NCBI RefSeq assembly: GCF_053078305.1
Contig: NZ_CP166879.1
Length of the DNA stretch: 64,000 nt
Direction: 5' to 3' (one strand)
Below, one piece after another: positions 26,716 through 27,429 of the stretch; the first letter of the stretch is position 1, and each line of letters starts with the position of its first letter. The notes under the pieces were generated by a model. The model searched no databases, was not told the origin of the DNA, and saw only the letters and a list, made by a program, of their open reading frames with translations. A program made the position numbers and the translations under genes.

Positions 26716-27429
26716 ATGAATGTTAATTACCTGAATGATTCAGATCTGGATTTTCTCCAGCATTGTAGTGAGGAACAGTTAGCAAATTTCGCCCGGCTGC
26801 TCACCCATAATGAAAAAGGCAAAACTCGCCTCTCCAGCGTACTGATGCGCAACGAACTGTTTAAATCGATGGAAGGCCATCCCGAGCAACATCGCCGCAA
26901 CTGGCAGCTGATTGCCGGAGAATTACAGCATTTTGGTGGCGATAGTATCGCCAACAAACTGCGCGGACACGGTAAATTGTATCGGGCCATTTTGCTCGAT
27001 GTTTCAAAGCGATTGAAGCTGAAAGCCGACAAAGAGATGTCTACGTTTGAAATTGAGCAACAGTTACTGGAACAATTTCTGCGTAATACCTGGAAGAAAA
27101 TGGACGAGGAACATAAGCAGGAGTTTCTGCACGCGGTCGATGCCAGGGTGAATGAGCTGGAAGAGCTGCTGCCGCTGCTGATGAAAGACAAATTATTGGC
27201 AAAAGGTGTGTCGCATTTGCTTTCCAGCCAATTGACCCGCATTTTACGCACCCACGCAGCAATGAGCGTGCTTGGGCATGGTTTGCTGCGCGGCGCGGGT
27301 CTGGGAGGCCCTGTGGGCGCAGCATTAAATGGGGTTAAAGCGGTCAGCGGCAGCGCCTATCGCGTGACGATTCCAGCCGTACTGCAAATAGCCTGCCTGC
27401 GCCGGATGGTTAGCGCCACTCAGGTCTGA
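26716..27429 (+). CDS. yaaW: Uncharacterized protein (UPF0174 family, from memory)
   Basis: 237-aa ORF at the K-12 yaaW position between yaaI and satP. Confidence 0.85.
   Translation: MNVNYLNDSDLDFLQHCSEEQLANFARLLTHNEKGKTRLSSVLMRNELFKSMEGHPEQHRRNWQLIAGELQHFGGDSIANKLRGHGKLYRAILLDVSKRLKLKADKEMSTFEIEQQLLEQFLRNTWKKMDEEHKQEFLHAVDARVNELEELLPLLMKDKLLAKGVSHLLSSQLTRILRTHAAMSVLGHGLLRGAGLGGPVGAALNGVKAVSGSAYRVTIPAVLQIACLRRMVSATQV

Follow-up and report, generated by a model that had tools for sequence, protein, structure and literature searches.

Does a long open reading frame (ORF) that lies antisense to an older gene, and wholly inside it, represent a gene in its own right, or is it a by-product of the sequence encoding the older gene? 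The yaaW locus of Escherichia coli raises this question in the 64,000-nucleotide stretch of contig NZ_CP166879.1 (NCBI RefSeq assembly GCF_053078305.1) analysed here, referred to below as the window. Embedded in yaaW, on the opposite strand, is an ORF of 174 codons that is the long-known and disputed htgA/mbiA, for which annotation and publications (Delaye 2008; Fellner 2014) already exist. This ORF is a textbook-style example of bacterial gene creation by overprinting, and very few other genes embedded in antisense are retained in the K-12 reference annotation. The reading preferred here, at a probability of roughly 0.6, is that mbiA is a "shadow" ORF, which arises incidentally from the coding sequence of yaaW and is not a gene kept for its protein; the MbiA protein itself would appear to have no maintained function. 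The evidence consists of the anatomy and reading phase of the frame, its length relative to chance, its taxonomic restriction, its polymorphic stop codons and an omega of about 1.

The antisense frame and its K-12 counterpart

The relevant features of the locus, in window coordinates, are the following.

26716..27429, + strand: yaaW coding sequence (CDS) from the ORF listing, 237 amino acids (aa); the "mother" gene of the antisense ORF
26727..27251, - strand: antisense ORF as delimited mechanically, 174 codons, GTG start at 27251, stop at 26727-26729; wholly within yaaW
26727..27242, - strand: mbiA-equivalent ORF from the K-12 ATG (27240-27242), 171 codons plus stop here, versus 161 in K-12
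27357..27359, - strand: upstream in-frame TAG stop, which bounds a 209-codon stop-to-stop open run
26757..26759, - strand: polymorphic codon, TGG (Trp) here and TGA (stop) in K-12; yaaW codon 14, CTC/CTT, Leu-synonymous
26805..26807, - strand: premature-stop site of EC581 and E. albertii; yaaW Thr30 ACC to ACT, synonymous; MbiA cut to 145 aa
26925..26927, - strand: premature-stop site of CFT073, Nissle 1917 and ATCC 25922; yaaW Leu70Phe, TTA to TTT; MbiA cut to 105 aa
27249..27255, - strand: Shine-Dalgarno (SD)-like GUGGGUG, 6 nt upstream of ATG 27242; reverse complement of the yaaW Thr-His codons ACC CAC
26286..26690, + strand: yaaI, a DUF2541 gene with a signal-peptide-like N-terminus, separated by 25 nt from yaaW downstream

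The first-pass annotation of this DNA had described a 174-aa antisense ORF at 26727..27251, wholly inside yaaW at 26716..27429, and had likened it to htgA/mbiA. The same coordinates appear in the ORF listing, and the frame is that of K-12 b0012, whose ATG maps to 27242. The statement that K-12 annotations carry an overlapping gene here is also borne out: in the K-12 record, mbiA (b0012; formerly htgA/htpY) occupies 10830..11315 and encodes 161 aa inside yaaW (b0011; 10643..11356). Mapped by coordinates, K-12 mbiA corresponds to window 26757..27242 (- strand), and the two ORFs share locus, strand relation, frame, ATG and flanking genes, with 3 amino-acid differences across the 161 shared residues in the alignment. 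The mechanical ORF begins 3 codons before the K-12 ATG and ends 10 codons beyond the K-12 stop. This C-terminal extension exists because positions 26757-26759 read TGG and not TGA, a difference that arises from a CTT to CTC change synonymous in yaaW. The GTG at 27251 was considered as a start and dropped for the ATG at 27242, because there is no SD sequence at the GTG, while the ATG agrees with K-12.

Identity of the region is 99.9% with E. coli strain D8 and 97.4-98.8% with most other sampled E. coli, and 5,424 of 5,426 complete E. coli genomes contain it. Its genes are arranged as dnaJ-dnaK / yaaI-yaaW-satP / mog-tal, with dnaK, yaaI, yaaW, satP and mog flanking as in K-12. On the + strand, yaaI and yaaW are probably co-transcribed. 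The antisense ORF points toward yaaI and dnaK; it is co-directional with dnaK and lies ~800 bp upstream of it.

Reading phase, chance and evolution of the frame

In the antisense frame, the third base of each codon lies opposite the third base of a yaaW codon, a phase termed "123/213" in Delaye et al. 2008 and "-2" in Mir & Schober 2014 (PMC4182739). A stop codon in this phase requires NNY-TAY or NNT-CAN in yaaW, that is, a Tyr codon preceded by a codon with T or C in third position, or a His or Gln codon preceded by one with T there. There are 26 Tyr, His and Gln codons in yaaW, and most of them come after a codon for Glu, Gln, Lys or Trp, amino acids for which no codon ends in T. Stop-prone contexts are few in Escherichia yaaW because most of its His and Gln codons follow codons of this kind. 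Seven sites are a single step away from a stop, located after yaaW codons 14, 30, 54, 84, 138, 166 and 171. In addition, because the two frames share their third codon positions, conservation of yaaW automatically conserves the antisense peptide. Mir & Schober 2014 (PMC4182739) likewise describe the third-on-third frame as conserved as a side-effect and warn that it "might be solely an artefact". Conservation in this phase is unusable as evidence of coding.

The length of the frame was compared with chance by holding the YaaW amino-acid sequence fixed and either resampling synonymous codons according to genome codon usage or permuting them within the gene. An open run of at least 174 codons then occurs with a probability of 0.13 under genome codon usage and 0.23 under within-gene permutation, and the total of 3 stops in the antisense frame is ordinary (P = 0.32-0.39 in the same resampling). 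The window as a whole contains 14 embedded antisense ORF pairs of at least 150 codons, 11 of them codon-aligned and 3 third-on-third, mbiA being among the latter. The antisense ORF thus exceeds chance only weakly, and given this high chance level and the number of such ORFs in the window, length alone is no evidence for a gene.

A gap-free alignment of yaaW from 20 Enterobacteriaceae places the open frame in a narrow clade. Among the sampled taxa it is open only in Escherichia, namely in E. coli, Escherichia sp. E1V33 and E. whittamii. In E. albertii it carries a premature stop at 26805..26807, the site also used in EC581, with yaaW intact. The same 174 codons contain 3-6 stops in the full-length sequences from Citrobacter, Salmonella, Kluyvera, Pseudescherichia and two further taxa outside Escherichia, and 2 in a partial C. 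youngae sequence. As the mother gene, yaaW is older and has widespread homologs, whereas the novel frame is limited to a young clade, a distribution that agrees with Delaye et al. 2008. Few changes opened the frame, among them the replacement of YaaW Tyr73 by Phe, which abolished an obligate His-Tyr stop, and a switch of the Leu70 codon from CTT to TTA.

Within E. coli, the end of the frame is polymorphic. Allele counts were made as the number of complete E. coli genomes, out of 5,426, that contain an exact 33-mer, and are lower bounds. Lengths are counted from the ATG.

171 aa: window, O157; yaaW codon 14 CTC; at least 2,161 genomes
161 aa: K-12; yaaW codon 14 CTT (synonymous); at least 1,501 genomes
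145 aa: EC581; yaaW Thr30 ACC to ACT (synonymous); at least 248 genomes
105 aa: CFT073, Nissle 1917, ATCC 25922; yaaW Leu70Phe; at least 154 genomes

The long type is thus a commoner exact haplotype than the K-12 type, and premature stops occur in at least 402 of the 5,426 genomes (at least 7.4%), very successful lineages included. Relative to the K-12 protein, a third or more of the C-terminal part is missing in these genomes. Four distinct antisense ORF ends were seen among 16 E. coli strains (CFT073 included), with a YaaW of 237 aa in all of them; both truncated strains that were translated, EC581 and CFT073, retain this full length. An intact ORF of stable length does not extend throughout Escherichia, as the four E. 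coli lengths and the truncation in E. albertii make clear. The first-pass annotation had named conservation of the antisense frame among relatives as a check on its coding status. The outcome of that check goes against a conserved protein: with yaaW intact throughout, stops interrupt the frame in E. albertii, in the truncated E. coli types and in all sampled genera outside Escherichia.

Selection on the antisense protein was assessed by dividing yaaW-synonymous changes into those that alter MbiA and those that are silent in it; purifying selection should deplete the former class. The sample comprised 20 Escherichia sequences, and the counts below are alleles per column, not phylogeny-based. 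Expected values are in brackets, and omega is a maximum-likelihood (ML) estimate with its 95% confidence interval (CI).

mbiA frame, yaaW nt 45-527: transitions 20/86 (expected 0.169); transversions 11/19 (0.56); omega 1.39 (0.88-2.14)
yaaI non-coding antisense frame, same phase: transitions 8/53 (0.147); transversions 15/28 (0.511); omega 1.07 (0.62-1.78)
yaaW 3' end outside the ORF: transitions 3/35 (0.115); transversions 6/22 (0.333); omega 0.74 (0.33-1.47)
reciprocal test, yaaW itself: transitions 1/67 (0.14); transversions 5/13 (0.612); omega 0.23 (0.09-0.52)

Among these 20 sequences there is no depletion of MbiA-changing, yaaW-synonymous substitutions, and the mbiA frame behaves like the non-coding control frames. 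The low omega obtained for yaaW in the reciprocal test indicates that the method detects constraint where it is present; it finds none on MbiA.

Product, expression and competing explanations

The predicted product is of unusual composition, with 23.6% Ser, 8.6% Cys, an isoelectric point (pI) of 9.7 and a poly-Ser tract. It has no match in Pfam, NCBIfam or PADLOC. When the 174-aa product was searched against 5.8 billion protein clusters, the only hits were an E. coli cluster of 14 members and three chimeras, none of them an independent homolog. Two of these chimeras (P0002 and P0004) switch between reading frames, and P0002 is located on a frameshift-ridden assembly (ENA ERZ11448917 contig_355) on which dnaK and satP are in fragments. 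An AlphaFold2 prediction from the single sequence, and so weak evidence, has a mean predicted local distance difference test (pLDDT) score of 28.8, with no secondary structure and no confident fold; the peptide is probably unfolded. The Prokaryotic Genome Annotation Pipeline (PGAP) does not call the antisense ORF in any of the 14 non-K-12 RefSeq records inspected.

Scans for sigma-70 (standard and relaxed) and sigma-32-like consensus promoters on the minus strand upstream of the ORF returned nothing convincing, the sole weak promoter-like site being at 27564..27538. No convincing minus-strand terminator was detected, the two terminator-like sites being the number expected from shuffled sequence. 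Rfam, scanned over 25900-28200 at E<=1, yielded nothing within the yaaW/antisense-ORF interval; the sole two hits, weak and far below gathering scores, are near 28059-28182, outside yaaW. The literature searched yielded no ribosome-profiling or proteomic evidence for mbiA. The doubt voiced in the first-pass annotation as to whether the frame is translated is justified.

Several observations nevertheless weigh against the by-product reading. In the resampling, an open run of at least 209 codons, the actual stop-to-stop length, has a probability of 0.03-0.04 and is somewhat unusual. The counts of the selection test do not follow a phylogeny, and an omega near or above 1 would also be expected of a gene of very recent origin on which selection is relaxed or diversifying. 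The SD-like GUGGGUG before ATG 27242 has a predicted anti-SD duplex energy of -6.2 kcal/mol, in the top 6% among the 912 + strand ATGs of the window (GTG 27251: +1.4, no SD), although its sequence is itself dictated by the yaaW codons ACC CAC. Fellner and colleagues are said to have reported promoter activity and mapped transcription start sites in enterohaemorrhagic E. coli (EHEC), where strand-specific stop mutants reportedly showed phenotypes in biofilm and in metabolites. Citing papers credit Fellner et al. 2014 with a phenotype for the mbiA/yaaW pair in EHEC. An htgA/yaaW intragenic promoter is active in vitro (PMC2731890), of 58 MG1655 RNA-seq samples at least 50% show overlapping transcription of yaaW and mbiA (PMC12288877), and cloning, Northern blots, protein labelling and promoter mapping are attributed to Missiakas et al. 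1993 by Delaye et al. Since the antisense strand is transcribed according to published work and a usable SD-like site precedes ATG 27242, some low-level translation of mbiA is plausible.

A further point of this kind concerns yaaW itself. Delaye et al. 2008 report slower evolution of yaaW in its overlapped part. In the present sample, synonymous transitions per opportunity are equal in the overlapped part and the yaaW 3' end (window 26760..27242 versus 27253..27426; yaaW nt 45-527 versus 538-711), and synonymous transversions are fewer in the overlapped part (0.14 versus 0.25; Fisher p=0.05). The shortfall is not peculiar to sites that change MbiA, and regional codon bias may lie behind it. 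Reduced synonymous diversity within the overlap was thus rejected as a sign of constraint, because the difference is marginal, confined to transversions and not specific to those sites.

The first-pass annotation noted correctly that gene birth by overprinting has been discussed for this ORF (Delaye et al.). It may be that mbiA is a genuine, very young gene, overprinted in Escherichia, which has its own intragenic promoter, is translated from ATG 27242 and modulates biofilm or metabolism (Delaye 2008; Fellner 2014). Such a gene would account for a frame that is open only in Escherichia within a far older mother gene, for the SD-like site ahead of the ATG, and for the promoter activity, transcription and phenotype in published work. 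Its retention by K-12 curators and the slower yaaW evolution of Delaye et al., marginally echoed by the synonymous transversions, point the same way. This explanation is nonetheless unlikely, as there is no purifying selection to accompany it: the omega of 1.39 (CI 0.88-2.14) is indistinguishable from the non-coding controls, premature stops are carried by CFT073, Nissle 1917, ATCC 25922, the EC581 type and E. albertii, and the C-terminus varies through changes that are synonymous in yaaW. The extreme composition, the lack of a predicted fold and an ORF length that is not significant given YaaW also argue against it. Delaye et al. 2008 themselves concede that the htgA ps/pn pattern may simply mirror yaaW and the 123/213 phase, and, according to the same authors, the original sigma-32 dependence and role of htgA were not reproduced.

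Alternatively, the antisense transcript could be the functional entity and the ORF incidental, with an excludon-like overlap that tunes yaaI-yaaW or reads toward the dnaK promoter region. Transcriptional interference or double-stranded RNA processing could be involved, and the premature stops could act via Rho-dependent polarity on the antisense RNA. The absence of constraint at the protein level fits this model, as does the in vitro activity of the intragenic promoter (PMC2731890), and yaaW-mbiA is one of 16 divergent excludons in MG1655 RNA-seq (PMC12288877). The orientation of the ORF, co-directional with dnaK and upstream of it, could moreover explain the historical association with heat shock. 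Any two annotations that overlap completely will be called an excludon almost automatically, though, and antisense transcription is pervasive in E. coli and mostly noise. With neither a consensus-like sigma-70 or sigma-32 promoter in simple scans of the minus strand upstream of the ORF, nor an Rfam match, nor a convincing terminator, a functional transcript seems quite improbable. A further reading is that mbiA is a gene in birth, expressed as a not yet constrained peptide, whose antisense transcription and translation modulate the JukA-family locus yaaI-yaaW (described below) and whose truncation alleles (CFT073/Nissle and the EC581 type) are a functional polymorphism. This is very improbable; if true, it would tie de novo gene birth to immune-sensor regulation in the E. 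coli core genome.

Under the by-product reading, a small number of substitutions in the Escherichia lineage would have removed the remaining stops from a frame with few stop-prone contexts. Purifying selection on YaaW would then preserve the antisense peptide as a side-effect, while synonymous drift in yaaW would freely shift or create mbiA stop codons. On this account mbiA is probably transcribed and perhaps weakly translated, and its Ser/Cys-rich peptide would be under no detectable selection.

The mother gene and related antisense frames

YaaW contains an N-terminal DUF3944 domain (PF13099, 1.2e-14) and a Cbp3-like chaperone domain (PF03981, 7.7e-16) in Pfam, and it matches the PADLOC JukA model PDLC04113 over its full length (E=1.3e-57, residues 1-234). 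Judged by these profile matches, YaaW is a JukA-family homolog. JukA (formerly YaaW) is the sensor of the Juk anti-jumbo-phage system of P. aeruginosa (bioRxiv 10.1101/2022.09.17.508391), and its DUF3944 and Cbp3-like architecture is shared by YaaW. DUF2541 genes are listed as putative jukA operon partners in the same source, and the sole same-strand neighbour within 50 bp of yaaW is yaaI, a DUF2541 gene. The yaaI-yaaW unit (26286..27429, + strand) is a possible Juk-like pair, in a core syntenic position beside dnaK in nearly all E. coli. The locus differs from the Juk system in that no JukB was detected beside yaaW, YaaI giving no PADLOC hit of any kind; moreover, yaaW occupies a conserved core position (5,424 of 5,426 E. 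coli genomes) and not a variable defence island. The Escherichia jukA tested in the Juk study was paired with an Xre regulator (bioRxiv 10.1101/2022.09.17.508391).

The naming of yaaW in public records is a separate matter. In every non-K-12 E. coli record inspected, RefSeq/PGAP names the gene "msyB: acidic protein MsyB". The assignment of yaaW as MsyB was rejected: YaaW bears no relation to the real MsyB (K-12 b1051, 124 aa; BLASTP E = 2.5), the latter matches NF008544, not NF007593, and YaaW has a pI of 9.4, in contrast to the "acidic" of the name. The misnaming occurs because the NCBIfam equivalog NF007593 (PRK10236.1) carries the MsyB title yet matches YaaW, end to end and at 520 bits. It looks like a mislabelled hidden Markov model is spreading a wrong gene name for yaaW.

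Two groups of antisense ORFs offer comparisons for mbiA. In the EHEC pairs nog1/citC, laoB/ECs5115, ano/ECs2385, asa and pop/ompA, the antisense ORF is likewise embedded in an older mother gene; these ORFs are also taxonomically restricted orphans for which overprinting has been proposed, and the phase of nog1 is also termed "-2 antisense". For several of the EHEC ORFs, RNA-seq and ribosome-profiling signals have been reported, whereas no such profiling was found for mbiA in the literature searched. Unlike the support reported for these pairs, the population test applied here to mbiA shows no constraint. The second group comprises shadow ORFs, such as those opposite dnaK/hsp70, whose length, like that of mbiA, follows from how the sense gene is composed and which codons it uses, and which are conserved as a side-effect without independent homologs. 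Most shadow ORFs are in the codon-aligned antisense phase, in contrast to the third-on-third phase of mbiA, and, unlike mbiA, most have no annotation history or published phenotypes.

Other long antisense frames are present in the window. A 678-codon ORF at 23915..25951 (+ strand), in the codon-aligned phase, spans all of dnaK (23993..25909, - strand). It is longer than the ORF of dnaK itself, and a longest-ORF rule therefore picks the wrong strand there. A 206-codon ORF at 58973..59593 (+ strand) lies inside 58846..59901 (- strand) in the third-on-third phase, as mbiA does, and an embedded antisense pair of 311 and 336 codons is found at 52081..53016 (- strand) and 52045..53055 (+ strand).

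The result for mbiA opens no new question in itself, and the side observations on yaaW, its membership of the JukA family and its mislabelling as msyB, are of practical value. For htgA/mbiA as an example of gene creation by overprinting, the population-scale evidence weakens the case: evolution of the frame resembles that of non-coding antisense frames, yaaW-synonymous changes move its stop codon about, and major lineages of E. coli, such as CFT073 and Nissle 1917, carry it in truncated form.

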